From a virus: a stretch of DNA of 64,000 nt. This document shows, piece by piece, positions 30,953 to 47,437 of the stretch. The notes below the pieces were generated by a model. It was given only the letters and a program-made list of their open reading frames with translations, did no database searches and was not told where the DNA came from. Every line of letters starts with the position of its first letter. Position 1 is the first letter of the stretch. The stretch covers positions 17,121 through 81,120 of IMG/VR virus record IMGVR_UViG_3300045988_138926; one strand, 5' to 3'. Position numbers and translations under genes: made by a program.

Positions 30953-30953
30953 A

Positions 30954-31262: not shown

Positions 31263-31347
31263 TTCTTTTCCTCCTTATAATTTATGATGTGAATGGTTTT
31301 GTTAATTCACCAAAGCGCTTATTGATGACAAGCACCTAATTATGTTA

Positions 31348-31977
31348 TTATTTAAATCTCCATATATATCCATAAGCCATGAACTTATCCCCTCTACATA
31401 CCTTTGATACAAAACTTGGATCATATCCGTCATTCGCCACAGATGACACCGATTCGTAGTTCTTTAAAACATTCCCCTCTTTATCTAATTTTAAAACTTC
31501 TTTTTTTAGGTGATCGTATAATCCATTTTCATGATTCAATATTGATGCTTTCGACATCTTTTCTTTTACATTTCTTCTGCTAAAAACATCTTTCATTGAA
31601 TTTGCAAGTTTCTCTTTAACATCCTCTCTATTCATTGCTAATTTTAAAGATTTCGAGGCGTTTATTCTTGTTTGTGGAAAATTACAATTCTCTTTTGGAG
31701 TGCACCATCTTAAATTGTCGCTTCGATTATCATTTCTTATACAATTTATATGATCAACATGATTTTTCCATTCTTCTTTTTCACAAAATGCCAATGCTAC
31801 AAGCCTATGTACATAGAGTTGTTTTAGCACTCCCTCTCTTCTTAAAGACACAGTATTATATCCATTTTCTTTTTCTTGCTGTTTCAATATTTTCATGCTT
31901 TTCAGACTTCTAATATTACCCATATTACTTACTTGATATCCATTATATCCGTCAATATCAGCCCATTTTTCTTCCAT
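31348..31977 (-). CDS. free-standing HNH homing endonuclease (HNH_3 / NUMOD-type)
   Basis: NGYQVSNMGNIRS ... LYVHRLVALAF ... VDHINCIRNDNRSDNLRWCTPKEN. Flanked by 70-85 nt gaps unlike its neighbours. Confidence 0.75.
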   Translation of the reverse strand: MEEKWADIDGYNGYQVSNMGNIRSLKSMKILKQQEKENGYNTVSLRREGVLKQLYVHRLVALAFCEKEEWKNHVDHINCIRNDNRSDNLRWCTPKENCNFPQTRINASKSLKLAMNREDVKEKLANSMKDVFSRRNVKEKMSKASILNHENGLYDHLKKEVLKLDKEGNVLKNYESVSSVANDGYDPSFVSKVCRGDKFMAYGYIWRFK

Positions 31978-31992
31978 TGTTATTTCGCTTTT

Positions 31993-32517
31993 TTATATTA
32001 ATCCCTTCCCGTGCTTATCATACCACAGCATAGTTATCACATTCCATGCAGCCGCAGCTAAATGGTGCACGTTAGTCTCTTTATCCATTCTCTCTCCTTT
32101 CAGGTATGCCATTATATGCCTGGCAGCCGCAGCACGATACCGTTCAAACCCGTTGTCAAGGTTCTGCCATTTATTGGGTCCGTACTTCTTTGCACCAGCA
32201 TGATAGACTCTTACAATGTCTTCAATCTCCTCCATTGGAAGTAAATCCCATCGTAGTTTATCGTCAATGATGTCATTTTTCACCGATTTGTTTTCTCTGG
32301 ATACTTTGACAGGAATAATACCCATAATATCCGTTTCTGTGACGAACGTCTCTCCATTGCAACAAACCTCGGCATATTCATCATTTACTTCTATGTCTGA
32401 TACCGCCTCGACTATAGCTCCTTTGGTGATTTTAAATTTGGAGCTGATTACATCGTCTTCCAACATGCGAAAAATAGATCCTTTTGGATAAAGGATATTT
32501 TTAGTATTATCATCCAT
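31993..32517 (-). CDS. hypothetical protein, 174 aa, possible nucleotide pyrophosphohydrolase-like (DUF5664-like) C-terminal domain
   Basis: YHAGAKKYGPNKWQNL...ERYRAAAARHIMAYL...HHLAAAAWNVITMLW. This resembles a phage dNTP pyrophosphohydrolase N-domain pattern. Low certainty. Confidence 0.5.
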   Translation of the reverse strand: MDDNTKNILYPKGSIFRMLEDDVISSKFKITKGAIVEAVSDIEVNDEYAEVCCNGETFVTETDIMGIIPVKVSRENKSVKNDIIDDKLRWDLLPMEEIEDIVRVYHAGAKKYGPNKWQNLDNGFERYRAAAARHIMAYLKGERMDKETNVHHLAAAAWNVITMLWYDKHGKGLI

Positions 32518-32572
32518 CTTTTATCTTGTTTTATCGTTGCTTTAATTAATTGATATAATAATATATAATCCA

Positions 32573-33199
32573 TCATCCTTTTTCTACAAAGCGATCAAAT
32601 TCTTCTCCGCTCATGACAATGCGGTTAATGATAATTATGCCGTTATTGCTATAACTATCATTTTTAACTCCCATATCATCAAGCTCCTTCTTTAAGTCTT
32701 CAAATGTGGGACCTTTCTTGTCTTTGAAAAATAAAGTAGCATGTGCAACCTTTCCGTTGTTTAGTTTTACCCTCACGGTATAGATATACCCTTTTTCCTC
32801 TTCATCCTTTTTGTTGACACCATCAAGGATGCTATTTATCATATCCTTGTCCTCACGTGATAGGTTGGATATGGCTATTCTGCCCTTTAATCTAAATATT
32901 TCGTTTTCGTTCATGACTTTCTGTTTTTTATTGTTTTCAAAATATTGTCTTACAGCTTCTATAGCCTTATCATCATCAAAAGCTTCTTCAAACTCCGTGT
33001 AGAACCTATCTCGCTCCATGCAGAATGTGTTTTTCCCTTCCGGTATAGGACGGAACACAACCACCCTCTCTTTGTCGTGATTGGTTCCTATTATGTTATT
33101 GTCTAAGATAATAGAATACTTTCTTGAACTTTTGTTGATAACAACATCATGTTGAAGACCATACAATTTAAGTATTTCCCTTAATTCATTTGTTTCCAT
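32573..33199 (-). CDS. hypothetical protein, 208 aa
   Basis: ORF. Confidence 0.55.
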   Translation of the reverse strand: METNELREILKLYGLQHDVVINKSSRKYSIILDNNIIGTNHDKERVVVFRPIPEGKNTFCMERDRFYTEFEEAFDDDKAIEAVRQYFENNKKQKVMNENEIFRLKGRIAISNLSREDKDMINSILDGVNKKDEEEKGYIYTVRVKLNNGKVAHATLFFKDKKGPTFEDLKKELDDMGVKNDSYSNNGIIIINRIVMSGEEFDRFVEKG

Positions 33200-33556
33200 T
33201 TACATCACTCCTACTAAATTCACTTTTATAGAACCATTTATGGTTTTAATGCTCCCATCTATGGTTGAAATCACATCATCTATATCATTTATAATGCCTT
33301 CCATGTCATCAACCACCTCCTCCATATCAGTTACAGCCCGATCTGATTCCCAATATCTTTCTGAGTCTTGTAACGATTCCGGTATATTATCTCTCGCCTC
33401 CGTCTCTTCATCTAAAATCATATCAATATCATCTTTGGCTGAATTTATGTTGTGCTTTAACTCCGATAACTTTGATTTGATGTATTCAAAATCTGTTTTA
33501 TACTTATTTGCGTTTTTGATAACATCTGATATTTTTTTTCTTCTCTTGTTGTTCAT
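33200..33556 (-). CDS. acidic hypothetical protein, 118 aa
   Basis: ORF. Asp/Glu-rich. Confidence 0.45.
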   Translation of the reverse strand: MNNKRRKKISDVIKNANKYKTDFEYIKSKLSELKHNINSAKDDIDMILDEETEARDNIPESLQDSERYWESDRAVTDMEEVVDDMEGIINDIDDVISTIDGSIKTINGSIKVNLVGVM

Positions 33557-34983
33557 GCTTTTATCCTATTATAATATTCGATAATCTTTTCTTTCCTATC
33601 TCCCGGTTTTACTGCCATATTCTCAGCCAAGAACCTAAAATACGACACCGGTATGTCCTTGAATCTAATTCCTTCATATTTTCCAAACCACATTATTATA
33701 CTGTCAAGATCGTCTTCTCTCCTACCATCTCCATTCACAGATTTAAGAGAAGCTGCCCGGCGAAGGATTTCGTCTTTGGTAACAATATCCCCCATCCTTA
33801 TATTGGACAGAAGTTGATCGCCGGCAAACATACACCATCCCTTAGAAGGAAATTGTTCGATCGTTAAATCTTCTATCCGGCCGAAACGCCTCATGTTGTC
33901 GCAGCAATCAACTATCAGCGCCTCTTTCTTGTCAGGATGGATGCGGACGGCGCGGCCTAATATTTGGTAATAAGTTGAATATGAGAAAGTTGGTCGACCA
34001 AACATCACACAATCAAGTTCAGGAAAATCAAATCCGGTAGCAAGCGTTGAATAATTAAAAACCACCTTCAACTTACCTTCTTTGAAATCGGATATGATTT
34101 GCTCTCTTTTCTTTTTGGTTGTTAGCGATGTTACGACACCGGTTATGGCTCCCATCCTGGCATTCATGAACTCTGATATTCTATTACATGATTCGATAGA
34201 ATCCATGCAAACCAAAATGGCTTTACGCTCGTTCATAAGTTGAAGAAGGCGCTTGTAGATAGAGTTGTTTAAGCCGTTTCGTACAATACTTTCTTTAATA
34301 GATTCGTTGGTGTATTCGGCTCCGGTGCTGTTTAACATCAGAGCCGATTCATCAAACGACCATCGTTCGTACTTAAGTGGGCACCAAAACCCTTGAGAAG
34401 TTAGCTCTTGTATTTGAGTTACGTGAACTATCTTCTTAAAGAAGTTATGTTCGTCTTTCGTCAGCATATTGAGCTTGCTATAGTTCCCTTCCAGCATGGA
34501 GCTGTAGGTCCGGAGGCGGCAGGGCGTGGCAGTGAAGCCCAGCACCTTCGCCTCTGGGAACTCGTTCATAAACTCCATAAATTCAGAACCTTCTTCTGGG
34601 GAATATCCTGAATGACATTCGTCTATCAATAAGGTATCTATCCCTATATCCTTCAACTTCGCTACATCTTTCTTTATGCTCTTTAATGTTGCATAAGTCA
34701 TGGCCGACAGTTCTTTTACACCACATGAAGCAGAATATATAGTAGGCTCAGAGCCGAATGATATAGCCTTCGCATAATTCTGCTCCAGAATCTCTTTAGA
34801 TGGTTGCAATACAAGAATAGGTCTTTTTAATTCATGAGCTATCTTGCTAATTATTAAAGACTTCCCCGCTGCACACGGCAAGACTTCTATGCCAGGCTTC
34901 TTAGATCTTCCTGTAAGAAACTTAAGCCCGGCATCTACTGCCTCTTTTTGGTAAGGTCTAAGTTCAAAGCCCACTGCAATCAA
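33553..34983 (-). CDS. SF2 DNA/RNA helicase (DECH-box, UvsW/type III res-like)
   Basis: LRPYQKEAV; Walker A LPCAAGKS; Walker B LLIDECH; motif III FTATP; helicase C-terminal domain. Confidence 0.75.
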   Translation of the reverse strand: MIAVGFELRPYQKEAVDAGLKFLTGRSKKPGIEVLPCAAGKSLIISKIAHELKRPILVLQPSKEILEQNYAKAISFGSEPTIYSASCGVKELSAMTYATLKSIKKDVAKLKDIGIDTLLIDECHSGYSPEEGSEFMEFMNEFPEAKVLGFTATPCRLRTYSSMLEGNYSKLNMLTKDEHNFFKKIVHVTQIQELTSQGFWCPLKYERWSFDESALMLNSTGAEYTNESIKESIVRNGLNNSIYKRLLQLMNERKAILVCMDSIESCNRISEFMNARMGAITGVVTSLTTKKKREQIISDFKEGKLKVVFNYSTLATGFDFPELDCVMFGRPTFSYSTYYQILGRAVRIHPDKKEALIVDCCDNMRRFGRIEDLTIEQFPSKGWCMFAGDQLLSNIRMGDIVTKDEILRRAASLKSVNGDGRREDDLDSIIMWFGKYEGIRFKDIPVSYFRFLAENMAVKPGDRKEKIIEYYNRIKA

Positions 34984-35362
34984 TATTATAATTCTGTGCG
35001 TAAAATCTTATTTCTTCTACCATTATTTTCCTTGCTATTTCTATATCGTCTTCATCCAAGCATATATTACATTCTACATAATCGGGATACGATATAGTAT
35101 TTGCATCTCCTATCGTGTATGCGCAACAATAATCAAACTCTGGTTCTTTGGCTACAGGAATAAAATCTTTGTCATCTGCCTCTGACAAAGCGCAGTACTC
35201 AACATCTGTTTCACACAATACAGTCAATTTTTCGACTTTTATAGTCAGATTATTATCTTCATAATGACCACTATAAAGCCATAATTCCTTCCCCTTGTTT
35301 TTGTAGAAGTCATCCAGTCTTTCCTTGATACTTTTCGCTTTTTTGATTTCAATCTTTTCCAT
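34964..35362 (-). CDS. hypothetical protein, 132 aa
   Basis: ORF. Confidence 0.45.
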   Translation of the reverse strand: MEKIEIKKAKSIKERLDDFYKNKGKELWLYSGHYEDNNLTIKVEKLTVLCETDVEYCALSEADDKDFIPVAKEPEFDYCCAYTIGDANTISYPDYVECNICLDEDDIEIARKIMVEEIRFYAQNYNIDCSGL

Positions 35363-35372
35363 GACATTTTTT

Positions 35373-35681
35373 TTAATTAGTTATTAAAATATATCTTTTA
35401 ACAATATCTTCAAGCTCCATAGAAAATAACAAACCTGGGCTTTTTTCGTACTCGTACAGAGTGTACCCTTCCTTTATGTCTAATATCTTAATCACATGCT
35501 TGCCTCTTTCAAATGGATCCGTGAAGTAGCCTTTGTATTCGTATCTTTGACCTACTTTTATTTTGTCGGTTTTCTTCTTCATCTTATACCGATCTATCGC
35601 CCTGCTTATTTTTATAAGAGCCGTTACAAACAGGTATGATAATAAAAAGACTGCCGCTCCTGTTATCAATGCTTCTTTCAT
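35373..35681 (-). CDS. small membrane protein, 102 aa
   Basis: N-terminal TM helix ALITGAAVFLLSYLFVTALI. Confidence 0.45.
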   Translation of the reverse strand: MKEALITGAAVFLLSYLFVTALIKISRAIDRYKMKKKTDKIKVGQRYEYKGYFTDPFERGKHVIKILDIKEGYTLYEYEKSPGLLFSMELEDIVKRYILITN

Positions 35682-35847
35682 TGCACCTCTTTTAAGTAAT
35701 TAAACCAAATAGCTTCCATCTTTTCCTGAAGCTCAAACGCCTTTTTAAAATTTCCGCACCGTACCGCCACGTTCCTCATCTCTTCAAGATATATGACTTC
35801 CGGATCTTGCCGGTATTTTGTTCTTAACTTTTGAACATCCTCGTATT

Positions 35848-36867
35848 TCATCGCTTTATCTTTTTAGACGGATCCCAATCTGAAGAGAAAGGGCATTCGT
35901 TTTTGTTATGTAATCCAAAGTCACAATAATAACACAGTGCCGACGGGCAGGGTAGCTTGTTTTGCGAAACAGGCTGGCTTAGGGTGGCACGCCGCTTGCT
36001 ATACCTGGCTCCTTCTGCTCCCTGGATGTACGCTTGAAATGATTTTACACTATTATCTTCAAAATCATACATTTTAGATAAAGTGTCATTTAGCATCTCT
36101 ATAGATTTTGTTTTACGTTCCTCATCCACTTTAACCTTTTGGTATTGTCTGGTCCTGGTAAAGAAATAGATGTTCATATCTGGCAGAACTCCACCATATT
36201 TTCTATAGATGTAAAACGAATATATAGGATGCTGTAAATTCGTTTCCAACTTCTTAGAATCAAAAACCTTATTACCTGATTTCCAATCTATGACATAATG
36301 GTGAACTACGTTCTTGCTCTTTATAGCCAGATGAAGATCTACCGATCCTACTATGTACACATGTGTATGAACGTCACCATTTATATCAACAGGCTTAGGA
36401 AGACGATACGGCAGCACAAAATCTTCTTCGACTCCAATTATAGCGCCGTGTCTGATAAGTTTCTCACAGGGATTAAGATCACTATCAGCTATCATAAACC
36501 TATTGCCATCTTTTTTAAACAGATCCACAATCCAAGCAAGAAGTTCCCCAGATTGCTTCATGGCCATCATCATATTTTCTGGTGATTGCCAAGGTATGTC
36601 TTCTTGGTAAGCATAGTAACTTATCGCTTCCCCCAGGTCTTTGCCAGAAGGCTGTCTTCCGTTCTTAAAGAAGTATTCCAGTGTCTTATGGATAACCGTA
36701 CCATAGGATGTAGCTTCTTGTTTTTCCGTAGACCTTTTGCCCTCCACGTAAGTTTTATACCATTTCATTGGACAAGTAAGAAACGTATCTATCTGGGAAT
36801 AAGATATGGCAAGACGTTTCACACCATTAAACTCCTTATATAGCAAATGCGTTTCCGGGACCATCAT
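35848..36867 (-). CDS. Cas4/RecB-like PD-(D/E)xK exonuclease with Fe-S cysteine cluster (putative)
   Basis: N-terminal Cys (FLTCPMKWY). Core D...VIDWKSG. C-terminal CPSALCYYCDFGLHNKNECPF (C-x5-C-x2-C-x9-C). This is the Cas4/AddB nuclease architecture. Confidence 0.45.
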   Translation of the reverse strand: MMVPETHLLYKEFNGVKRLAISYSQIDTFLTCPMKWYKTYVEGKRSTEKQEATSYGTVIHKTLEYFFKNGRQPSGKDLGEAISYYAYQEDIPWQSPENMMMAMKQSGELLAWIVDLFKKDGNRFMIADSDLNPCEKLIRHGAIIGVEEDFVLPYRLPKPVDINGDVHTHVYIVGSVDLHLAIKSKNVVHHYVIDWKSGNKVFDSKKLETNLQHPIYSFYIYRKYGGVLPDMNIYFFTRTRQYQKVKVDEERKTKSIEMLNDTLSKMYDFEDNSVKSFQAYIQGAEGARYSKRRATLSQPVSQNKLPCPSALCYYCDFGLHNKNECPFSSDWDPSKKIKR

Positions 36868-37211
36868 AAGTCATTGTCTTTAAATCCTTCTGGGTAATAT
36901 ACGACATACTTCTTACCGTCTTCTGGTGTCATGGCAAACTGCATGTAGTTATTACGATTACGATGCTTGCCATCCAATCCTCGTTTCCAATACAGGATAC
37001 CGTCTATATCCACATAAGATCGGCCGCGGTCGGCTCTAACCACGTCCGTGTGTAGCAGATACCCGTCGGAAGACACAATCCACACTTTATCCCCTTTGCT
37101 TAAATAAGATATTCTTTTTCTTACAACAACCCTTTTCTTATTATCCAATACAAATTCCTCGTCAGTCATACTCTTCATCCTCCTCTTCTTCTGTTTCAAA
37201 ATCAATTCCAT
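36864..37211 (-). CDS. hypothetical protein, 115 aa, immediately downstream (minus-strand sense) of the orphan omega-RNA-like element
   Basis: ORF. No IscB similarity. Confidence 0.5.
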   Translation of the reverse strand: MELILKQKKRRMKSMTDEEFVLDNKKRVVVRKRISYLSKGDKVWIVSSDGYLLHTDVVRADRGRSYVDIDGILYWKRGLDGKHRNRNNYMQFAMTPEDGKKYVVYYPEGFKDNDL

Positions 37212-37311
37212 ATCCCATATTCTATTAAATATATTTAAAGTTATTCGTATGTTTTAATACATCCCCTCGGAGACCTTTCGGTCTCCTTGGTAGATGTAAA
37301 TCCCGTTAGGG

Positions 37312-37523
37312 ATAAGTCAGGATTTCTCCTGTAAGTACCCATCGCCAATGTTATAAGAGGTTTTATATAATGGCAACACTGTTTCGTCAAATACACTACT
37401 CCTGTTTAATCACCATCCTTAGAGCTACGGACTTGGGTAAACATCCGTAGGTAACTATCTATTCTCAAATAACGTAGCCTTCGTTTCAAGGCTTAGGCTA
37501 ATAACCCGATCTCTGAAAGAGAT
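37312..37523 (-). ncRNA. orphan IscB-type omega-RNA (HEARO)-like structured RNA, paralog of the element upstream of iscB
   Basis: About 75 percent identical over roughly 210 nt to 49176-49387 in the same orientation. Differences are compensatory in at least three stems: cagga/tcctg vs cagag/ctctg, agcctt/aaggct vs agtgtt/aacact, and atctct/agagat vs aatagc/gctatt. Strand is inferred from the iscB copy. Confidence 0.55.
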
Positions 37524-37750
37524 GTATTAAACTTTTATAATAGAATTATATTAGTTTAATACTATTTGGGGTTATAACACTGATCATAATGCTTGGTCAG
37601 TTCTTCTGGTTCTAAATCTTGTCCAAAATCCATGTTAAAAATATCGTAATTAGTAAAGCACTAAAAATCACTATTCCTGCTGGCATGAAATCTATAAATG
37701 CTGCTTTTGCTTCTTCAATTAGGCCCAAGTGTAACCTTGGGCCATTGTAT

Positions 37751-39451
37751 TTATTTTTTGTCATCTCCTTTTAATTTCTTTAAAGTATCTGCAATCGGAA
37801 GCTGATCGATGACTCCCAATGCCGGAGCGACGGTCTTGACAACATTGTTAAGGAAATTACCGGTACTGTTCTGACCGCCGTCAAATACCGTGATATTTCC
37901 GAGGTTAATGTGCTCAAATGCTTTAACCTGTTCTCCAGCAATTTCTTTCCACTGATTAACCATCTTGTACTGGATGGCGATCTGGGGATTGGATTCTGCT
38001 GCTTCCACCATAGCCTTAAATCCGTCGGCTTCTGCCATTAACGACTTTTTCTTACCTTCGGCTTCTGCCTCCAGCTTCATCTGAATAGCTTTTGCCTCCG
38101 CCTCAGCTTTTGCCAAATGTGCTGCTGCCTCAGCCTCAGCCCGGCGTTTGATCTTCTCGGCCTCGGCATCAGCTTGTAAGATAGCCTCTTCCTTCTGGGT
38201 TTCAGCCGGCACAATCTTTTCAGCCTTAAGCGCAGCCTGAACTTTCTTAGCCTTAGCTTCTTCCACTTCTTTATCAGCAAGCTCTTTTGCCGTTTTTACA
38301 GCCGCTTCCGATTTAACTTTTTCTTCTCCGGCCTTCTTTTCTGATTGAGCTTTGATAATCTGTAGTTCTGATACTGACACAGCAACCTCCTTCTGGGCAT
38401 TGTTGTATCCTATAGACGCATTTTTCTCAGCCTCAGCCTTCTTAATCTGAGCTTCAGAGTCTTGTATTGCTATAGCTGCTTCCTTGTCAGCTTCAGCCTT
38501 ATTCTTTCCGACTTCTTCCATCCTTTCAGCCTCGGCTTTATTTACTTCAAGTTCTGCCTTAGATCTTACAATCGCCGATTCCTTGTCGGTTAAAGTTTTT
38601 GCGATAACCGCAGCCCTGTCTCTATCTGCTTGAGCTACGCCGATCTGTTTCTCTTTATCGGTTAAAGCCAAGGCTATTTCTTTTTCTTTCTTCGTTTCAG
38701 CTACTATCGTTTCCTTTTCTTTTTCAGTACAAGCAATTTGAATCTCTTGTTCTTTTTTGGTATTAGCCACAGCCGTTTCTTTCTCCTTCTGCTGTACAGC
38801 AATCTTAATAGCACCCAGCTTCTCCTGCTCTTCGATATTAGCTTGTGCTTCGTTCAGAGCCCTACTTTCAGCCTCCTTACCAAGGTTCATAATATAACCT
38901 GCTTCGTCTCTGATGTCACTGATGTTGATGTTCAGGAGGTAAAGACCTAACTTGTTAAGCTCGTTATCAATGTTCTTTCTTGCCTTATCCAAAAACTCAT
39001 CCCTGTCAGAATTAAGTTTTTCGATTGTCATTTCAGCAATAATCAAACGCATCTGACCGTAAACGATGTCCGTAATAAGATTTTCAGTAGATTCGGTATC
39101 CATCCCCAAAAGTCTTTCTGCCGCATTTTGCATGATTTCGGGATTTGTACTGATAGCTACTGTAATGGTCGTAGGTACATCTACTCTAATATTCTGAGAT
39201 GACAAAGCACCGGTAAGCTTGCAATCTATTTGCATAGGCTCCATTGACAAAACATCATAGCTTTGAATAATAGGCAAGACGAATGCCGCTCCACCATGAT
39301 ATAATTTCGCCGACTTCTTTTCCCCACCTGTCTTACCGTAAACGACCAAGACCTGATTAGGCTTACATCTACGATACCTTGATAAGACTCCGATGATTGT
39401 CAAAATAATCACTACAGCTAAGATAGCTGACACGTACATGATTGTTGTCAT
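37751..39451 (-). CDS. flotillin-like SPFH/band-7 protein (FloT/YuaG-like), 566 aa
   Basis: N-terminal TM anchor YVSAILAVVIILTIIGVL, then an SPFH domain, then a long Ala/Glu/Lys-rich coiled coil (EAEKNASIGYNNAQKE...KAEAEAKAIQMKLEAEAEGKK) typical of flotillins. Confidence 0.8.
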   Translation of the reverse strand: MTTIMYVSAILAVVIILTIIGVLSRYRRCKPNQVLVVYGKTGGEKKSAKLYHGGAAFVLPIIQSYDVLSMEPMQIDCKLTGALSSQNIRVDVPTTITVAISTNPEIMQNAAERLLGMDTESTENLITDIVYGQMRLIIAEMTIEKLNSDRDEFLDKARKNIDNELNKLGLYLLNINISDIRDEAGYIMNLGKEAESRALNEAQANIEEQEKLGAIKIAVQQKEKETAVANTKKEQEIQIACTEKEKETIVAETKKEKEIALALTDKEKQIGVAQADRDRAAVIAKTLTDKESAIVRSKAELEVNKAEAERMEEVGKNKAEADKEAAIAIQDSEAQIKKAEAEKNASIGYNNAQKEVAVSVSELQIIKAQSEKKAGEEKVKSEAAVKTAKELADKEVEEAKAKKVQAALKAEKIVPAETQKEEAILQADAEAEKIKRRAEAEAAAHLAKAEAEAKAIQMKLEAEAEGKKKSLMAEADGFKAMVEAAESNPQIAIQYKMVNQWKEIAGEQVKAFEHINLGNITVFDGGQNSTGNFLNNVVKTVAPALGVIDQLPIADTLKKLKGDDKK

Positions 39452-39482
39452 AACTTTTAAAATTTAATTGTTGATAAAAAAA

Positions 39483-39971
39483 TTAGATACTTAATTCTCC
39501 TTCTTCATATTTTATATTCGCCTTGTCGCCGTTTTTGTAGGTTTTTCCAGACAAGCATCTTACTCTCATTTGCTCTTGTCTTCCATTTTTCGAAATATTT
39601 ACCATATAATGATTCTTCCCTGATCTAAATACTATCTCCACTTCTCTTCCGTTTAAATCTTCCGGACATTCGTACACCATTTCTTGCTTTAACTTAAGAA
39701 GTAACTTATATACGTAAAACAAAATGATAAAGAAAAACGACCCTATCACAACCCCTACTAAATGGGAACCCGAAAAGTACGTGGCCCAGCTATATCCAAG
39801 AATAAAATGCGTTATACCCTTGAATGATATGATGTCCGACAAAGACATGCTTAAATCAGAAGCACTGTCAATATCCGTATCCAGATCAGATCCTAATATC
39901 GACAACAAAAACTGTATAACAAAAGCAAATGATGCTATTAAAGCCATGCATAAAATTATATCACTTCCCAT
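39483..39971 (-). CDS. NfeD-like membrane protein (YuaF-like flotillin partner), 162 aa
   Basis: Multi-TM N-terminus followed by a soluble beta-rich C-terminal domain. Lies immediately upstream of the flotillin gene, as in nfeD-floT operons. Confidence 0.55.
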   Translation of the reverse strand: MGSDIILCMALIASFAFVIQFLLSILGSDLDTDIDSASDLSMSLSDIISFKGITHFILGYSWATYFSGSHLVGVVIGSFFFIILFYVYKLLLKLKQEMVYECPEDLNGREVEIVFRSGKNHYMVNISKNGRQEQMRVRCLSGKTYKNGDKANIKYEEGELSI

Positions 39972-40212
39972 ACCCTTCTGTTATTATTTTGTAAACAAGA
40001 TCAGTCATATCTTTGATGGTCTCCATATCATAATCAATAATAACAATATTGAATTTTTGTTCCACCATCACTTCCAGTTCAATTTGATCAACAGAATCTA
40101 ATCCAAGTTCTTTAAACGTCACATCTTCTTCATGAACTATATCTATTTCCGAATTAAGAAACTGAGTAATAATTATATCCTCTATTATCTTTCTGATTCT
40201 TACTTTTTCCAT
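39961..40212 (-). CDS. acyl carrier protein-like, 83 aa
   Basis: FKELGLDSVDQIELEVMVEQKFNIVI matches the ACP phosphopantetheine-attachment motif LGxDSLdxVELvM. Confidence 0.65.
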   Translation of the reverse strand: MEKVRIRKIIEDIIITQFLNSEIDIVHEEDVTFKELGLDSVDQIELEVMVEQKFNIVIIDYDMETIKDMTDLVYKIITEGYGK

Positions 40213-40913
40213 TGCTTTCTAATTTTGTTAAATAAATACGTTTTTATGTTTTTCAATCGCTCTTTGTCTGTTTCAGAACTTCCGGTAAACAAATAATCCG
40301 GATTGCCTTTAGCTGGCGGCGTAGGCAATTTAGATACGGCAAACAACCAATCCATTTCCTTATTCTTCTTAGACTCCAAATAAGGCTCGGTAGCGATCTT
40401 AAATTTTTCAGCTATTAAGTCAAAGAGCTTTGAATTTTTAAGGTTCATATGAACTGAAAAAGCCTGAGAAGGCGGTTTCCATATGAAGTTGCATAAGCTC
40501 ATTGTATAATCTCCTGACTCTGCTATATAAGATTCCGTTACCTGAAGTATGACCTCTTTCTTGAATGAGGTGTTACCCATAAACCAACACAATCTGGATT
40601 CTGCTTCTTTTCTGCTGACACCTATGTCTTTTGAATATGATTCGTACATTCCTATCATAATCTTCAACGTTTCCAGAACCTCGTCTGTCATTTCCGGTGT
40701 CTCTATATAATTCACAAAAGACGTTCCTTTGTTGGTCAATCTCATCACGCCTGATTTTAATTTCTCAACCAGGCCAAGCTCTATATACCTCCCAGCATCT
40801 TCTTCCGGCATGGCTTCGATCATAACCGTATCCTTCTGTCTTATGGCAAGAAGATTGGCAAGATCATTAGGAGTCATGTCTGATGCTGCAAGTTGTCTGA
40901 AATTGATGTACAT
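40200..40913 (-). CDS. hypothetical protein, 237 aa, first gene of the ACP-NfeD-flotillin run
   Basis: ORF. Its stop overlaps the ACP start. Confidence 0.6.
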   Translation of the reverse strand: MYINFRQLAASDMTPNDLANLLAIRQKDTVMIEAMPEEDAGRYIELGLVEKLKSGVMRLTNKGTSFVNYIETPEMTDEVLETLKIMIGMYESYSKDIGVSRKEAESRLCWFMGNTSFKKEVILQVTESYIAESGDYTMSLCNFIWKPPSQAFSVHMNLKNSKLFDLIAEKFKIATEPYLESKKNKEMDWLFAVSKLPTPPAKGNPDYLFTGSSETDKERLKNIKTYLFNKIRKQWKK

Positions 40914-40915
40914 TC

Positions 40916-41197
40916 TTAATCAGCTTTAATAAAAATAACATTCTTGTTATCTTGTCTATCAACATGTCCACATGGACCAATAATTATGTCTGTACATGAA
41001 CAAGAATCGTAATCTTCGAATATACATCCATCGCATGTATCACCTTCCACACATTTCAATTTTACAAGTCCGGCAGTAAATACTTCTCCTACTTTAAATT
41101 CCTTCTTTTCCATATTCCCTCCTTGTTTTTTAACTGTTGTACCCTTCTTTAATAATCGAATTTCTACCGGTAGATACCGACTGTCGAAGATCGTCAT
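40916..41197 (-). CDS. Cys-rich small protein, 93 aa
   Basis: C..C..C clusters. Confidence 0.4.
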   Translation of the reverse strand: MTIFDSRYLPVEIRLLKKGTTVKKQGGNMEKKEFKVGEVFTAGLVKLKCVEGDTCDGCIFEDYDSCSCTDIIIGPCGHVDRQDNKNVIFIKAD

Positions 41198-41732
41198 GTA
41201 CAGAATCTACCGTAGAATACTTGTTTCTGGTTGTAAAAATCACTTCCAGCATCTCCTTGTAATCACCTAAAGCTACTTCGTATCTCGGATCTACTTTGGC
41301 TTTTCTTTCAGCCTCTGCATTACTTTTAGCCAGTTCTCGATCAAGAAGATCTTCTTTGATTCGGTCAGCAATCATATCAAGTTCTTTTTTAATAACTTCT
41401 CCTGCTGCCCGAAGTTGACCTTCTACGTCACCAAGCTGGTCTTGGACGGTACCTATTTCTTTCTTTAGACGATCGTATTCGTTAATCATACCCATATCAC
41501 CTGCATAGCCGGAAAAGTCCTTGATTATTTTGGTTCCTTCTTTAAGGAGCTCAATGACTCGTCTTTTACGTTCTCTGCTTATTAAAGACGGAAGACGATA
41601 ATTCATATCCGCCACCGCCTTATCATGTATGGAGTTGATTAAAAACATCTCTCTTTCATCCCCTGCAAATTCAGTAAGAACCAAAAGGAACTTACTTATC
41701 AGGTATTCGTTTTCTTCTACTGTTAGTCTCAT
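41130..41732 (-). CDS. hypothetical coiled-coil protein, 200 aa
   Basis: ORF. Confidence 0.5.
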   Translation of the reverse strand: MRLTVEENEYLISKFLLVLTEFAGDEREMFLINSIHDKAVADMNYRLPSLISRERKRRVIELLKEGTKIIKDFSGYAGDMGMINEYDRLKKEIGTVQDQLGDVEGQLRAAGEVIKKELDMIADRIKEDLLDRELAKSNAEAERKAKVDPRYEVALGDYKEMLEVIFTTRNKYSTVDSVHDDLRQSVSTGRNSIIKEGYNS

Positions 41733-41747
41733 GGTTCTTATTTTTTT

Positions 41748-42881
41748 TTAATACAATGACTGTTCTTCTTTTGTCTCTTGTTCTTGTTCCTGATTGTCCG
41801 TAACATCTTCCACAGTATAGAGCTTGGGCGGCGTCGGCGGCTGGTTGGGGTTCACGAACTTCGTCCCTCCCTCCCCGTACATCCATCCATGCCCCGGCAA
41901 GATCTCTGGGTGGATTGTATTAGTAAGCTCTTCCATACTAACTTGCCTTACCTTCAGTATATGATGAAACACCAGTCCGGCTGTCCTGAATGATGTTTTG
42001 TTTTCAGTTTTAAACCTATCAAGAGTCTGATACCAATCTTTCCCAAATATCATATACTTATCCAGCCCGTACCTACGAGGATTGTGCAAACCTATCATTA
42101 ACGTACATAACTGACCCAGCGTATCAGACTGGTAAAAATCAGAAAGACGCGGAGGCTGCTCTTGTGGGCTTTTTATCCTTCCTTCTATCTCTCTGTTGAA
42201 TTGGGATATGATGAGGAAAAATATGTTTTTATATACTAATTTAGCTTCGTTCATAACCGCCACCAAATCATCTATAGCCGACTTAGGATCTAACCCCATT
42301 CTTTTTATCAAAGCAATATGATCGACTTTAAATATTATAAGACGTTTGTCTTTATGTTTGGTAGCTATATGATACACAGCCGCCTCAAACTCTTTTACCG
42401 TACACGGAGCATCGATGTATATTATATTATTCCTGATTTCACCTTGAAGGATTTCAAACATCCTCATCTCTTCTACTGTATTAGAATCTTGCCTTCTTAA
42501 TATTTCAGGAGCCCGCTTTTTCATATCCTGGCTCATTCTACGAAGAAGAAGATCTTGAGGATTCATTTCGAACTCGCAATTAACAAGAAAATAATCTTCT
42601 GCTTGCGGGTTGATCATCGGATTCATCACATTTTCCAATATCTTTTGGGCCACATACGATTTACCCACAGATGGCCGAGCCCCTATGGCAATAGCATGCT
42701 GAGGGAAAATACCTCCAAGCAAAGCCTCATCAATATAATCGTATCCGGTTTTAGCGGGGATAAGCTCTCCCCGCCTGTATTTTAAGATATTCTCATACGC
42801 CTCTTCCATAACCTGTTTGGAGGTTTTGAATATCCTTCTTATATCTATCCTATTTGCTATCTCCTCGTGCATTTTTGTCAC
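41748..42881 (-). CDS. DnaB-like replicative helicase (RecA-fold C-terminal domain)
   Basis: AIAIGARPSVGKSYVAQKI is the Walker A; VNCEFEM is equivalent to the SLEM motif. Overall DnaB C-domain pattern. Confidence 0.6.
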   Translation of the reverse strand: MTKMHEEIANRIDIRRIFKTSKQVMEEAYENILKYRRGELIPAKTGYDYIDEALLGGIFPQHAIAIGARPSVGKSYVAQKILENVMNPMINPQAEDYFLVNCEFEMNPQDLLLRRMSQDMKKRAPEILRRQDSNTVEEMRMFEILQGEIRNNIIYIDAPCTVKEFEAAVYHIATKHKDKRLIIFKVDHIALIKRMGLDPKSAIDDLVAVMNEAKLVYKNIFFLIISQFNREIEGRIKSPQEQPPRLSDFYQSDTLGQLCTLMIGLHNPRRYGLDKYMIFGKDWYQTLDRFKTENKTSFRTAGLVFHHILKVRQVSMEELTNTIHPEILPGHGWMYGEGGTKFVNPNQPPTPPKLYTVEDVTDNQEQEQETKEEQSLY

Positions 42882-43161
42882 CTTTTGTATCCGATTTGGA
42901 TCCCCTATTAGCTTTTACTGATTTATACCTAAGACCGTTTTTGGTATGAGAACAATCTTTGCCTTTCCTCCAGCTTTTGCCTTTCTTCTTGTCCGTTTCG
43001 TAGTTTTTACGACCAAGCTCCCGGCGTTTGGCTTTCTGTTCCGGTCTGGCATTTATCTCCTTGTCCTTTTTAGCCTTTTTCTTCCTGGCTTCGGGATGAG
43101 TCCTGTAGTACTCTGTTGATCTGCCCATCTTCTTACATTTTTTTGATTGATAATAGCACAA
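42850..43161 (-). CDS. highly basic Lys/Arg-rich small protein, 103 aa
   Basis: KKKAKKDKEINARPEQKAKRRELGRK... Confidence 0.4.
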   Translation of the reverse strand: MCYYQSKKCKKMGRSTEYYRTHPEARKKKAKKDKEINARPEQKAKRRELGRKNYETDKKKGKSWRKGKDCSHTKNGLRYKSVKANRGSKSDTKGDKNARGDSK

Positions 43162-43179
43162 AGATAGGCAATTCTCGCC

Positions 43180-43746
43180 CTATTTCAACCTGCCGTAACT
43201 CATATCAGGATCACACCAGACATACCCGTCTTTCTCATCATGAAGATACTCAGGACATCCTCTACATGCGCTACTTCCTGACACTATTTGATTGTTTTTA
43301 TTAGGGCACTTATCTCCAGGTTTATGCCATTCTATTCTCGAACTTGATCGCTCTTTGTTTACATGACAGAATTGAAATACTTTTCCCATCGTCTTCTCGC
43401 CAAACATACCTATATGTGTGTATTCTTCCGGTATAGAGAGAAATTCAGATAAATCTTTATACATCCTTTCCCGTTCCTCCGGCGTAGACCATAGTCTGTC
43501 AAGTTCGGCATGGACTCTTATCTTAAGAGATCTCAGTGATGGCCCCGCAAGCCGGCCTTTAGCTTTTCCCTTATTCGGCCCTGATTCATGAACACCGACA
43601 TAAGCGTTGCATGGTTTACACATCATAACCATCCCTAAGCCTTTTCTGCTATATATTTTATCGGCATTGACCAACTCGGTTTCTCTTCCGCAATAAGGGC
43701 AAATTTCGCCTCTTAAAATCCGTTGTTGCCGCACATTGAGTTCCAT
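43180..43746 (-). CDS. zinc-finger protein, 188 aa
   Basis: CPYCG...CKPC and C-terminal CRGCPEY motifs. Confidence 0.5.
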   Translation of the reverse strand: MELNVRQQRILRGEICPYCGRETELVNADKIYSRKGLGMVMMCKPCNAYVGVHESGPNKGKAKGRLAGPSLRSLKIRVHAELDRLWSTPEERERMYKDLSEFLSIPEEYTHIGMFGEKTMGKVFQFCHVNKERSSSRIEWHKPGDKCPNKNNQIVSGSSACRGCPEYLHDEKDGYVWCDPDMSYGRLK

Positions 43747-43991
43747 ACTCTATCCTTTTGTTTCTCTTTAAACTTTTCATACAAACTGCTTTCAGTTTCC
43801 ATTTCCGAGATCTCCACCTCTACGTCCTCTCTTTTGAAAATTACTTTCTTGGCTGTAGGATACGCACATTTAGAGATACGAATAGCATTACGAATAGCGT
43901 AAACAAAATACGTTTCTGGTGATGATTCGATCACCACTACCTCGTTTAAAGTGTTTTTATAATTTTCCATGTTGTTATCTACTTGCTTCAA
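43713..43991 (-). CDS. hypothetical protein, 92 aa
   Basis: ORF. Confidence 0.4.
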   Translation of the reverse strand: MKQVDNNMENYKNTLNEVVVIESSPETYFVYAIRNAIRISKCAYPTAKKVIFKREDVEVEISEMETESSLYEKFKEKQKDRVWNSMCGNNGF

Positions 43992-44328
43992 TTACACACC
44001 CTGGATTATCTTCACATGCCTCTTTGTATTCGATAAGAAACTTAAGAAATGAATCATAAGACCCCCATCCGTTTTCTGGTTCGTATCTCAAAAGACTCTT
44101 TCTCTTGGAGATCATAATATATATACCTTTTGTGAGTATCTTCACCATCTCCTTAGTATCTATTTCCCTGCCCAATTCTTCCGGTCTCCAAACATAATCG
44201 TATAGTGTTTCTTTGTTTTCTGATACGAATATTTTTTGTGCCATCTTGTTCATGTTGTGGGTGATGTTTGCAACCCATTTACGATCCTCTTCTTTCTTCT
44301 TGCTCTTAATATAAACGTCCAGGCTCAT
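43975..44328 (-). CDS. hypothetical protein, 117 aa
   Basis: ORF. Confidence 0.45.
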   Translation of the reverse strand: MSLDVYIKSKKKEEDRKWVANITHNMNKMAQKIFVSENKETLYDYVWRPEELGREIDTKEMVKILTKGIYIMISKRKSLLRYEPENGWGSYDSFLKFLIEYKEACEDNPGCVIEASR

Positions 44329-45319
44329 AATATTTCTCTTTTACTTTGTTATTAATTATCAAATCTGCCACATCATCTCCGTCCCCTACATTCTCAACAC
44401 TCTGAAGATAGTCCGATACTTTTATCCTTGACTTCATCATCATCCCATCTATCTTTTTACTCCATGTGTCAAATGCTTGTCCTTTGTCCGGAAAAGCTAC
44501 AGTCTTTCTATCTTTTAAAACATCTATCACTTCCGGTCTTAAGTTCTGCAACCCACCGGTAGCTACAAACAACTCATCTGGTTTATTCACGGCGCATATA
44601 ATAGCCGTCTTTTCTGACTCCACCAAATTAACTACCTTATCTGGATACTGGCTTAGAAGATGTTCTCCAAACAGGCATTGTCTAAGCAAGAAGTCTCTTG
44701 CATGCAACGAGTGATAAAACATGACATGAGGTCGCTCATTGTCACCGTCTTTTTCCTTCACTCTTTTTACATCAATCTCATTCCCCTGGCTGTCGGTCTT
44801 TATATAAAAATCCATAATCTTGCCGGTTCTGCATACAAAGTCCTTATCTATCTGCCAGAATATACAACACCCTTTCCATCCCCATAAGTCCATTGTTCCG
44901 ACATGATACCTTCTGAATACATCAGATACCCTTTCTTTTCCCCATAGAGACGATAAAAATCTAAATACGGTGTTTCTATCGTCTGGGACTACAGTCCTCT
45001 CAAACTCGCTAAAAGGTATGTAATTTACAACGTCAGGATTTATAGGAGGACGATAAGCTCTTATACACTTATTTCCCGAAATCCAAAGATCTTTGTCACC
45101 TACATCCTTACCAGTGGGTCGTTTATCGTAACCGCAAGTCCGTTCGTGATCGCATCTTCCGAACTCGTTTCCAACAACCTGACCTGTTGCCACATCAATA
45201 TAAGGAGTGAGGCACCGGCTTTTCCCGCAAGCCGGGCAGGTCAGCTTTAGTCGGCTCCTGCCAGGCCTGCGGTCAAGTTGAAACCGGGGTACGTTTTCGT
45301 ATCTTCTAAAATCAAGCAT
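44306..45319 (-). CDS. zinc-finger plus TOPRIM-like protein, putative DNA primase
   Basis: CPACGKSRC...RCDHERTCGY zinc ribbon. Then LVESEKTAIICAVN...TVAFPDKGQ, resembling the TOPRIM E...DxD pattern. Confidence 0.4.
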   Translation of the reverse strand: MLDFRRYENVPRFQLDRRPGRSRLKLTCPACGKSRCLTPYIDVATGQVVGNEFGRCDHERTCGYDKRPTGKDVGDKDLWISGNKCIRAYRPPINPDVVNYIPFSEFERTVVPDDRNTVFRFLSSLWGKERVSDVFRRYHVGTMDLWGWKGCCIFWQIDKDFVCRTGKIMDFYIKTDSQGNEIDVKRVKEKDGDNERPHVMFYHSLHARDFLLRQCLFGEHLLSQYPDKVVNLVESEKTAIICAVNKPDELFVATGGLQNLRPEVIDVLKDRKTVAFPDKGQAFDTWSKKIDGMMMKSRIKVSDYLQSVENVGDGDDVADLIINNKVKEKYYEPGRLY

Positions 45320-45328
45320 AATGCTTAT

Positions 45329-46648
45329 TTATATTACAAATCTTTTAGACATTTCCTCAGCAATATCATATACGACAATATGATCCTCTTCATTGTAAGG
45401 CTTATTGATATTCAGCACTCCCTTTCTCACTTTGAACCTCTTGTCTTTTCTGATATGATTCAACATCCCTTGTTGGAATACACAGTCTGCCTTCTCCATA
45501 GCAGCATTTTTATCAGACCATTCTTTTAGCGTATAACCTTTACTGTTCGTGCTTTTTGGAGAAAAATTCATAATACGTGCATCAATTCCGTACCAGTTTT
45601 TAACCATTCTCCTTTCAGCCTCCAATTGAAAAGCATGTTCATTTCGTATGTCACCTGATTTAAAATCTAAGATAACAATCTCTTCTTTCTCCACTTCTCT
45701 CACTTCCTTCTTCGGATCTCCTTTTTTGAACTGCCCCGTAGCCCTTTGATATACGGCTCCAAAATAACCTTCTTCTTTGTATTTGAATGTCATTTTAACC
45801 ATCGCATCAATAGGTGTTGCTACAAGGTAATCCTCTAAAGAAAGGATTCTTTCTATCATCATCGGCTTAACCTTATACTCCGAACAAAACTTAGCAAACT
45901 TCATAACTCTGACAATCATATCGTCAAGATCATCTATGCTACCAAAGAATTTGTCAAGATTCTTTTTCGATATCTTCAGCTTGCCTTCTTGCACTGTCTT
46001 AACTATAAAACTTCGATTTAAGACCATATCTCTACCTGTCAAGTACAATCCATATAGGTAGTGCATGATCGTTCCTTTATCTGCATCATATTCTGATACT
46101 TCTTCCGGATTGCGACCAATCATCCTCATCTCCTGTCTCCATTCTTGAAGAGCCGTCTTGTCATCTACGAATCCGTCTCTGATCATGGTTGTTACCGAGG
46201 CGTATATCTTGGCTGTCCCATCGTCCATCTTTCTTACATAAAAACGATTACCGTCTAATGTCAATCTTACGAATTTGGGAGTCTCGATCTTCTTTAACTC
46301 ATCACAGATATAAAACGGTTCTAACGTTTCCTGATTTTCTGTAAACGGATTCGAATCCTCTTCTCCAGGGTTAGGAGCGGCTTCCTCCTCCGGAGCTTCC
46401 GGTTCCTCCTTCTGGGCCTGCTCTGGCTCAGGCGCCGGCTCTTCAACTACTGGAACCTGTCCACCTCTTTCCGCTATGTCTCTGTTCTTTATTAAAGACA
46501 TAACCTCCTTCTTCAACTGCTCCGGTGTTTGATTAGGATCTGACACCGACATCACAACATCGTTCATTCTAAACAACGTATTTCCTTTTCCCTCCACCAT
46601 AGGTACAAACCCTAAATCTGTCAATATTTTTATTTTCTGTTCTATCAT
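45329..46648 (-). CDS. hypothetical protein, 439 aa, possible PD-(D/E)xK nuclease domain
   Basis: Acidic Pro/Glu linker, then ATPIDAM...EIVILDFKSG...QLEAERR motifs compatible with a PD-(D/E)xK fold. Confidence 0.55.
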   Translation of the reverse strand: MIEQKIKILTDLGFVPMVEGKGNTLFRMNDVVMSVSDPNQTPEQLKKEVMSLIKNRDIAERGGQVPVVEEPAPEPEQAQKEEPEAPEEEAAPNPGEEDSNPFTENQETLEPFYICDELKKIETPKFVRLTLDGNRFYVRKMDDGTAKIYASVTTMIRDGFVDDKTALQEWRQEMRMIGRNPEEVSEYDADKGTIMHYLYGLYLTGRDMVLNRSFIVKTVQEGKLKISKKNLDKFFGSIDDLDDMIVRVMKFAKFCSEYKVKPMMIERILSLEDYLVATPIDAMVKMTFKYKEEGYFGAVYQRATGQFKKGDPKKEVREVEKEEIVILDFKSGDIRNEHAFQLEAERRMVKNWYGIDARIMNFSPKSTNSKGYTLKEWSDKNAAMEKADCVFQQGMLNHIRKDKRFKVRKGVLNINKPYNEEDHIVVYDIAEEMSKRFVI

Positions 46649-46730
46649 CGCAATTTCTCAATTAATTCCTCTTTAACATAATACAACACAGTTACAGTCT
46701 CATCAATATCTGTGGCTGCTTTCTCAAATA

Positions 46731-47252
46731 CTATTTGGGGTTATATCTGTCAATTATTTCAATAATCAACCTACCTCTTTCTTTAATCATTCCCCTGCTT
46801 TCCATATCCAGTACCTTCTTTACCGCATATTTCCACACAAAAGGAAATTCTGTTTCAAGTTTATCAAATTCTATCCGGTCAAGATACATGTCGAATACCG
46901 TATGCTCCGATTCATGTAGAAAAACTATATTATCTCTGCAAGTGGCAACCGACTTATATATCCTTTTCGGAAGTATGTGACATACGTTACATACTGTAGG
47001 AAAATGAATAGCCCTACCAGTCATAGACATCCGAATACTATTTAGCTCTTCCAGCATAAGACGAAAAAACCCGGATAAATCCGGGCTCTCTAACTTTTTC
47101 TTCTTGCTGCTGTTTTTAATGGATGTAATTCTGTTTTTCTTCTTCGGAGTCAACTCTTTGCTCCTGCAAGCCTGGCATAAGCCATGACTTCTTATCATCA
47201 CTTTTCGTCCGCATCGTTCGCAGACGTATAGCTTCTTTTCCTTGCTTTCCAT
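46731..47252 (-). CDS. zinc-ribbon protein, 173 aa
   Basis: CERCGRK...CQAC at the N-terminus. Confidence 0.5.
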   Translation of the reverse strand: MESKEKKLYVCERCGRKVMIRSHGLCQACRSKELTPKKKNRITSIKNSSKKKKLESPDLSGFFRLMLEELNSIRMSMTGRAIHFPTVCNVCHILPKRIYKSVATCRDNIVFLHESEHTVFDMYLDRIEFDKLETEFPFVWKYAVKKVLDMESRGMIKERGRLIIEIIDRYNPK

Positions 47253-47437
47253 TCGAATAATAATGATATTATTGAAAAGAACAATCCCGCTGAAGCCAGT
47301 AGATAAGGTACGTTCATTAATAATTTAGATACCTCGTCTGTCTTAATCACTATCAGAAGGAAAGCGCCTGCTGAAAGCAATGATATTATCGCCACAACAA
47401 GCGCTATGTTGGAAACTACATCAGCCTTACTCTTCAC
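47198..47437 (-). CDS. small membrane ORF, 79 aa
   Basis: Two hydrophobic helices. Overlaps its neighbour. Weak. Confidence 0.3.
   Translation of the reverse strand: MKSKADVVSNIALVVAIISLLSAGAFLLIVIKTDEVSKLLMNVPYLLASAGLFFSIISLLFEWKARKRSYTSANDADEK

Follow-up and report, generated by a model that had tools for sequence, protein, structure and literature searches.

The window analysed in the current study is a 64,000 nt stretch of viral DNA (IMG/VR virus record IMGVR_UViG_3300045988_138926, positions 17,121 – 81,120 of that record), and the subject of interest is a group of four genes on its minus strand (nt 37751 – 40913) that includes a flotillin gene and the gene of an NfeD-like partner. Read in the direction of the genes, the group comprises open reading frames (ORFs) for a 237-aa protein (nt 40200 – 40913), an 83-aa acyl carrier protein (ACP)-like protein (nt 39961 – 40212), a 162-aa NfeD-like protein of the YuaF/YqiJ type (nt 39483 – 39971) and a 566-aa flotillin (nt 37751 – 39451). 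The 237-aa and ACP ORFs overlap by 13 nt, the ACP and NfeD-like ORFs by 11 nt, and a gap of 31 nt separates the NfeD-like ORF from the flotillin ORF, so that the close packing described in an earlier, sequence-only reading of this DNA is as reported. The flotillin stop is in turn overlapped by 14 nt by a phage-specific 50-aa ORF on the same strand (nt 37612 – 37764), recognised from the ORF list and its hydrophobicity, in which residues 19 – 50 form a C-terminal hydrophobic helix. A scan for sigma-70 promoters and terminators found no minus-strand terminator-like site inside the cluster and was otherwise uninformative for a phage of the Bacteroidales type, and a PADLOC search of the cluster proteins gave no match to a defence system, returning just two chance-level hits (E 0.01 – 0.02). 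The identity and origin of the last two of the four genes can be given with high confidence: they form a host-derived cassette, NfeD-like gene first and flotillin gene second, with a counterpart in the chromosomes of Bacteroidales.

The window comes from the genome of an epsilon crAss-like phage. When nt 30000 – 50000 were compared with a phage collection, the sole matching record was csAssE-Sib (OR575929.1), a complete 151-kb genome from the human gut that shares 93% nucleotide identity over 83% of the query and has the same gene order. This phage was assigned to the epsilon crAss-like group, with a proposed genus Epsilonunovirus, in its genome paper; flotillin and ACP are mentioned neither there nor in the paper that defined the epsilon group. 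The GenBank annotation of csAssE-Sib already reads 'acyl carrier protein', 'transmembrane protein' and 'flotillin family protein' for these genes, in the same order as in the window, and the flanking genes form a replication block (DnaB-like helicase, primase/helicase, exonuclease and ATP-dependent helicase). Flotillin is encoded on 165 IMG/VR contigs, and the best 80 of these proteins, most of them on contigs of 75 – 155 kb, are at least 96% identical to that of the window. At nt ~28000 – 29000 of the window the GC skew and AT skew both switch sign, and at the corresponding point csAssE-Sib has plus-strand genes upstream and a minus-strand replication/accessory block downstream.

By its sequence, the 566-aa protein is a genuine member of the flotillin family. 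Residues 30 – 211 match Pfam Band_7 (PF01145; 7.6e-26, 91.7 bits vs a cutoff of 23.6) and residues 450 – 559 match Pfam Flot (PF15975; 2.1e-9, 38 bits vs 27), both above the gathering scores, while one hydrophobic segment is present at the N terminus (within residues 1 – 28) and the stretch between the two domains (residues 216 – 449) consists of 56% E+A+K with 24 EA/AE dipeptides. Human flotillin-2 and flotillin-1 were the top matches among sequences of solved structures in the PDB. The NCBIfam FloT model (NF058507) matched at 5e-42 with 144.5 bits, far under its 700-bit equivalog cutoff, so that the protein is a family member but no FloT equivalog, and PHROG 200 matched weakly (6.8e-5). The earlier assignment of this ORF as a flotillin, made from its membrane anchor, SPFH domain and EA-rich coiled coil, was therefore sustained by the profile searches, none of which moved it to another family. 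Among close relatives the length of the protein varies between 408 and 659 aa, through in-frame indels in the EA-rich coiled coil (window nt 38100 – 38800; length variants P0286, P0288, P0293 and P0299). In the last of these, a bacterial homologue, part of the SPFH domain is duplicated internally, which may be an assembly artefact.

The 162-aa protein is more difficult to classify, as it has no direct match in Pfam, PHROGs, NCBIfam or PADLOC, and NCBIfam holds no model for its family. An exhaustive phmmer search recovered 192 cluster representatives, mostly of 155 – 180 aa and matching over their full length. The protein itself shows no match to Pfam NfeD (PF01957) at E ≤ 0.1, and two of 50 family members match that model at 6e-5 or better. 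With a profile of the C-terminal 67 residues, the solved structure that matched best as a single full domain was YuaF (2k14; E 0.011), and the stomatin operon partner 3wwv scored E 0.8; designer beta-propellers, which headed the hits of the NfeD profile against the PDB, were discarded as an artefact of summed sub-threshold repeats. AlphaFold2 (AF2) places helices at residues 2 – 26, 44 – 65 and 72 – 98, two of the N-terminal stretches being strongly and the middle one moderately hydrophobic, followed by a C-terminal soluble, all-beta, OB-like domain (beta-barrel). Flotillin-associated NfeD proteins have been described as 140 – 150 aa in length, with three hydrophobic stretches plus an all-beta domain that is soluble, and encoded upstream of the flotillin gene (PMC2636767). 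The architecture of the 162-aa protein fits this description, with about three N-terminal stretches and a length within about 140 – 170 aa, and its gene lies directly 5' of the flotillin gene in the window as well as in loci L083 and L084. It is accepted here as a YuaF/YqiJ-type NfeD protein, mainly on fold and gene position and with weak sequence support, and it is on these same grounds that the NfeD-like call of the sequence-only reading is borne out.

Bacteroidales are known hosts of crAss-like phages, and their chromosomes carry a direct homologue of the pair. A scan of bacterial genomes, taking one genome per species, recovered 80 chromosomal loci (Bacteroides, Parabacteroides, Phocaeicola, Prevotella and relatives), the flotillins of which share 62 – 67% identity with the whole length of the phage protein. 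Directly upstream and on the same strand, 79 of the 80 loci have an NfeD-like homologue (28 – 42% identical); together with the published operons (PMC2636767), this confirms the yuaF-floT gene order that the earlier reading had put forward. A bacterial metagenome contig likewise has the NfeD-flotillin pair, set between housekeeping genes. The spacing and order of the two genes are as in the phage, and this operon is the likely source of the cassette. The phage copies have diverged further than any two of these genera have from one another, and their genomic neighbours are wholly different: the ACP, 237-aa, 50-aa, 93-aa and 200-aa ORFs were found in none of the 80 loci. The phage flotillin is also ~15 – 25 aa longer than most of the sampled bacterial proteins. 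In neighbour-joining trees the two phage flotillins pair up, and so do the NfeD-like proteins of the two phages; in both cases the branch is long and falls inside the Bacteroidales set (flotillin identity in the tree set: median 87% between bacteria, 58 – 70% between phage and bacteria). P. vulgatus joined the phage branch in these trees, which was treated as a probable case of long-branch attraction. By region, phage and Bacteroidales are 76% identical in the SPFH and C-terminal parts of flotillin, 47% in the coiled coil, which is the most diverged region of the protein, and 36 – 38% in NfeD, and the same rank order of regions holds between the bacteria themselves. The simplest reading of the sequence similarity and shared synteny is that the host operon was captured once, from a Bacteroidales genome, by an ancestor of these phages.

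A second, diverged phage lineage with the gene order of the window is represented by L084, and allows the constraint on these genes to be estimated from the proportions of nonsynonymous (pN) and synonymous (pS) differences. Between the window and L084, flotillin is 82% identical (pN 0.11, pS 0.77), the NfeD-like protein 61% (pN 0.23, pS 0.89), the ACP 38% (pN 0.41, pS 0.74) and the 237-aa protein 76% (pN 0.14, pS 0.74). The synonymous sites are saturated, which indicates that all four genes are under purifying selection. Judged by these substitution patterns, the NfeD-flotillin operon is thus kept by selection in at least two phage lineages.

The surroundings of the cassette become clearer when more distant genomes are compared. 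The order of backbone genes in relatives is primase-like gene, DnaB, a ~200-aa ORF, the 236/237-aa gene, a slot of variable content, the PD-(D/E)XK nuclease gene and a ResIII helicase gene. The upstream boundary of the slot is the 237-aa gene, which lies outside the cassette and encodes a protein of the crAss-like backbone whose N terminus forms a MarR-like winged helix. The downstream boundary is the PD-(D/E)XK exonuclease gene (window nt 35848 – 36867, minus strand; Pfam PDDEXK_1, 1.5e-20), which has the same position in every relative examined. Between these two the slot may be empty (L257), or hold a single 101-aa ORF (L254), two ORFs of unknown function (L255), or an ACP-like gene, a DNA methylase gene, two small ORFs and two radical-SAM genes (L170, L171 and L256). 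In the window, csAssE-Sib and L084 it holds the ACP, NfeD-like and flotillin genes, a small membrane ORF and further small ORFs (in the window, the 50-aa and a 115-aa ORF), and some strains of the window lineage have in addition an orphan HEARO RNA, described below. In more distant relatives, a homologue of the 237-aa gene is found near DnaB with neither ACP nor flotillin. The 237-aa gene is therefore a conserved backbone gene that bounds the slot; within the slot, the ACP gene and the NfeD-flotillin cassette are two distinct pieces of cargo.

The ACP-like protein is a variable-slot neighbour that lies outside the bacterial operon. It matches Pfam PP-binding (PF00550; 26.7 bits vs a cutoff of 20.8), and 65 ACP sequences in the PDB match it at E ≤ 0.01. 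Its motif, ELGLDSVDQIEL, aligned with ELGLDSLDTVEL of solved ACPs, which places Ser39, in a DSL-type motif, at the canonical position at the start of helix II, so that both the identity proposed for this ORF and the context of its attachment serine were upheld. The serine is retained in 156 of 159 ACP hits over the scanned loci. All 14 NCBIfam ACP models scored below cutoff (best 30.3 bits vs 71), i.e. the protein is not the housekeeping AcpP equivalog. It shares a family match (2e-8) and the Ser motif with the phage ACPs of PHROG 5934 ('acyl carrier protein'). No partner enzyme for it is annotated in csAssE-Sib: among the 206 features of that genome the annotation names no phosphopantetheinyl transferase, acyl-ACP synthetase, ketosynthase, acyltransferase or lipid enzyme. 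Moreover, the counterparts in the sister-lineage contigs L170 and L256 read GFDDLD, where the attachment Ser has become Asp. An acyl-carrier role for the 83-aa protein is for these two reasons uncertain, and the tie to lipid remodelling suggested in the sequence-only reading is left unsupported, since no transferase or lipid enzyme is annotated.

The slot and its flanks show several other differences between relatives. In L170 (nt 6675 – 9946), L171 and L256, all contigs of ~150 kb, the ACP-like gene is followed by the DNA methylase gene and the two radical-SAM genes, and this arrangement may be a DNA-modification module with an unmodifiable carrier-like subunit. TnpB genes (OrfB_IS605/Cas12f-like) occur in L084 (nt 13497 – 14288), L171 (nt 1592 – 2812), L254 (nt 8044 – 9628) and twice in csAssE-Sib (nt 58986 – 60125 and 64190 – 65413), one of them adjoining a Y1 transposase next to the PD-(D/E)XK nuclease gene. 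The ResIII helicase gene of L171 and L173 is split by inteins or LAGLIDADG inserts.

Two other accounts of what lies at this locus can be judged from these comparisons. Since the flotillin resembles Bacteroidales chromosomal genes, the cluster might be bacterial DNA misjoined to a phage contig, but the junctions on both sides are identical in the complete csAssE-Sib genome and in more than 130 independent IMG/VR contigs in which the cluster gene order recurs, GC content and strand skew run unbroken across the cluster and its flanks, and the identity to bacterial genes, as given above, is low for both proteins. A chimeric assembly or host contamination is thereby excluded, and with it a circumstance that the earlier reading saw as refuting its proposal. 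That reading also took the 237-aa, ACP, NfeD-like and flotillin genes to be one unit, linking acyl or lipid chemistry to membrane microdomains. They do lie on one strand with adjacent or overlapping stops and starts, they occur together in 138 of 159 viral loci, and the ACP of both phage lineages with flotillin, like that of every close relative scanned, has the canonical serine. Tight packing is, however, normal throughout this gene block, and the four genes separate readily: the ACP and 237-aa genes are missing from all 80 bacterial operons, and in phages the winged-helix 237-aa gene may stand by itself, be accompanied by ACP only, or be part of the full set of four. The ACP gene is found without flotillin beside methylase and radical-SAM genes, there with the change of Ser to Asp, and is retained where flotillin has been deleted (see below); its expected partners (phosphopantetheinyl transferase, acyl-ACP synthetase, lipid enzyme) are, as noted, unannotated in csAssE-Sib. 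A functional unit of four genes is accordingly very unlikely. The related suggestion that the cluster is accessory cargo was right in spirit, as the slot is variable, but the cassette consists of the NfeD-like and flotillin genes and not of all four.

Frequent loss of flotillin is seen among natural strains. To avoid a bias toward flotillin, 80 IMG/VR loci were picked by means of the 237-aa gene, and 77 of them were complete across the slot. Flotillin is present in 60 and absent from 17 (~22%) of these, in phage contigs that are otherwise near-identical. In the 17 lacking it, the NfeD-like gene is followed by a 119-aa ORF and the nuclease gene within ~70 nt, or ~430 nt where the HEARO insert is present. 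The deleted stretch corresponds to window nt 39477 – 37643 (~1.8 kb) and removes flotillin together with most of the 50-aa ORF, leaving the NfeD-like gene in place. In viral loci the 50-aa ORF is thus present with flotillin and lost with it. The deletion junction falls in short T/A-rich microhomology (for example L176, nt 8437 – 8492, and 16 further IMG/VR loci), and at least three junction variants occur, in backgrounds that differ by up to 19% in their ACP. Further variants of the cassette with internal deletions are represented in metagenomes by short ORFs (P0028, P0033, P0025, P0030, P0045 and P0046) in which the N-terminal membrane region of NfeD is joined in frame to the C-terminal domain of flotillin.

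Point mutations add to this picture. In-frame TAG codons are present in the flotillin gene of five distinct contigs (L049/L240, L241, L206/L078, L212/L079 and L221), at codons 405, 490, 500 and 527, each of which is CAG in the window. Changes of CAG to TAG make up 61% of the possible nonsense transitions in this gene, and all four events are of this kind. In-frame stops were also found, in a few contigs, in the ACP gene (codons 22, 43 and 52), a 188-aa ORF and a 102-aa ORF, and in none of five backbone ORFs scanned (DnaB, PD-(D/E)XK nuclease, 237-aa, 200-aa and 115-aa). Either decay of accessory genes or a local recoding of TAG to Gln could account for these TAG codons. Flotillin is, in sum, an accessory gene of these phages, long kept and not essential.

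The RNA element adjacent to the cassette (nt 37331 – 37575, minus strand) is a bona fide HEARO RNA, the ωRNA of IscB, as the earlier reading had suspected: it matches Rfam RF02033 over the full model with 102.7 bits (gathering score 83). No IscB ORF lies beside it. It is a polymorphic insert of ~360 bp (IMG/VR loci L175 – L253), absent from csAssE-Sib; 9 of 59 flotillin-bearing loci and 5 of 17 that lack flotillin have it. Because its occurrence is independent of flotillin, the element did not bring the cassette to its position, and the idea that the cluster had moved in association with it is abandoned. A second HEARO RNA (nt 49198 – 49414, minus strand; 110.4 bits) is found directly upstream of an IscB ORF of 408 aa (nt 47921 – 49147, minus strand; RRXRR, 1.5e-60, and HNH), the complete element spanning nt 47921 – 49414. 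The neighbouring DUF4494 gene has no annotated IscB ORF beside it in csAssE-Sib, so that the element looks like an insertion relative to that genome. The 408-aa IscB could in principle use the orphan HEARO RNA in trans.

For the function of the phage pair, the nearest guide is Staphylococcus aureus, where NfeD makes direct contact with FloA: its OB-like domain attaches to the coiled coil of flotillin and stabilises the oligomers. Without using ATP, this complex acts as a holder of unfolded membrane proteins, and it aids survival during stress (PMC11222466). FloA is of the shorter flotillin paralogue type. Solved eukaryotic flotillin complexes are large membrane-bound cages. By homology, the phage pair would be co-transcribed with the early/middle replication genes, and in the early to middle phase of infection flotillin would be anchored by its N-terminal hairpin on the inner membrane's cytoplasmic side, where its coiled coil and C-terminal domain would mediate oligomerisation. 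Binding of the coiled coil by NfeD, through the OB-like domain, would stabilise the oligomer, giving a scaffold or ATP-independent holdase for membrane proteins. In this way the phage copy would add to or replace the flotillin capacity of the host during infection, and the membrane, with its phage or host proteins, could be kept working until lysis. Since roughly one natural strain in five has deleted flotillin, any such benefit would be conditional and not essential.

The explanation favoured here, by a modest margin of confidence, is that of a captured accessory NfeD-flotillin cassette acting as a membrane scaffold; the specific scaffold/holdase function, taken by itself, is a tentative proposal. 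Several points weigh against this explanation. Being crude and having a long phage branch, the neighbour-joining tree leaves the donor and the number of transfers not tightly fixed; frequent natural loss of flotillin could mean that it is of little value; and strains lacking flotillin keep the NfeD-like gene, unlike the prediction for a strictly obligate pair. Taken to its conclusion, the loss would make the cassette a near-neutral passenger, captured host DNA that is being shed and has no role in infection. The deletions in 17 of 77 loci with their several junction variants, the internal NfeD-flotillin fusion remnants, the in-frame stops in flotillin and ACP set against none in the five backbone ORFs, and the in-frame indels that change the length of the coiled coil would all suit such a passenger. 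What makes it unlikely is that flotillin has a pN of just 0.11 across a distance at which synonymous sites are saturated, that its full domain set is intact, that ~78% of strains have an intact gene, and that the pair is kept at the same position in two diverged lineages, which argues for long-term selection. A further alternative takes the cassette as functional but hostile: the phage flotillin would co-assemble with that of the host, to which it is ~65% identical overall, and subvert or disable host microdomains, affecting signalling, envelope-stress responses, defence or superinfection, instead of supplying extra scaffold activity. A flotillin operon of their own is present in all 80 Bacteroidales species loci recovered, and the SPFH and C-terminal regions are well conserved between phage and host, with the coiled coil and the NfeD partner far more diverged, points in favour of a mimic. 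The same pattern of rates is however seen between the bacteria themselves, so that it is not specific evidence for mimicry, and a poison subunit has no obvious need of its own NfeD partner; a mimic or dominant-negative role is improbable. Similarly low odds are given to a more elaborate form of the scaffold reading, in which the NfeD-flotillin pair and the 50-aa membrane peptide would together make a phage-specific membrane platform that alters the outcome of infection. Such a platform might shield the inner membrane from premature lysis or from abortive-infection effectors that target membranes, or might serve to anchor replication or assembly.

Compared with known systems, the phage cassette shares the gene order of yuaF-floT(yuaG)-yuaI in Bacillus subtilis and yqiJ-yqiK in Escherichia coli (PMC2636767), with a small NfeD first and flotillin second. 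As in yuaF-floT, hydrophobic helices at the N terminus of the NfeD protein precede an all-beta domain at its C terminus, and the flotillin has an N-terminal anchor, SPFH domain, EA-rich coiled coil and C-terminal Flot domain. Lateral transfer of the NfeD-flotillin pair as a unit was described by Hinderhofer et al. in 2009 (PMC2636767). Unlike yuaF-floT, the phage pair lies within the replication block of a virulent-type crAss-like phage, its NfeD is too diverged for a direct Pfam match, its flotillin reaches 144 bits against the FloT equivalog cutoff of 700, and a 50-aa membrane ORF stands in place of yuaI. Among phages, SPFH/Band_7 ORFs have been listed in the T4-like phages 44RR, Aeh1 and RB43 since 2006 (PMC1524935) and in phage GIB1, and the role of such ORFs is still described as unclear (PMC13239085). 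These proteins, together with those of PHROG 200 and Vibrio phage KIT04, are SPFH-superfamily membrane proteins like that of the window, mostly of short SPFH-only or lipoprotein types, and none of them is shown with a recognisable host-type NfeD-flotillin operon. In the phage collection, 11 of 50,697 records match the window flotillin, nine of them short or unannotated and with partial alignments, and only two complete annotated phage genomes carry the label 'flotillin family protein': csAssE-Sib and KIT04. The KIT04 protein is 29% identical, its upstream ORF encodes an 82-aa membrane protein without an OB domain, and a pattern scan of IMG/VR recovered no relatives of it.

A literature search found no paper on a phage-encoded flotillin or a phage NfeD-flotillin operon; phage Perkons, which came up as a lead, concerns integration into the host floA gene. 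Neither the families nor the operon nor the acquisition of host-derived accessory genes is new, and GenBank and IMG already label the genes, so the finding is incremental and does not describe a new kind of system. It does correct the picture of the gene cluster: the ACP and the 237-aa protein are encoded by phage genes distinct from the cassette, and the replication module has here a slot for variable cargo.

Understanding of bacterial flotillins and of their NfeD partners is still poor, and to our knowledge neither has an established role in phage infection. A complete host-type operon is carried here by one of the most abundant groups of human-gut phages. If the pair with its 50-aa peptide does form a phage-specific platform, it would be the first working flotillin system encoded by a prokaryotic virus, and the presence/absence polymorphism would reflect an arms race dependent on the host strain. 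The natural polymorphism of flotillin in a very abundant gut phage is useful in its own right, as strains with and without the gene provide a natural comparison for a scaffold role of flotillin in infection.

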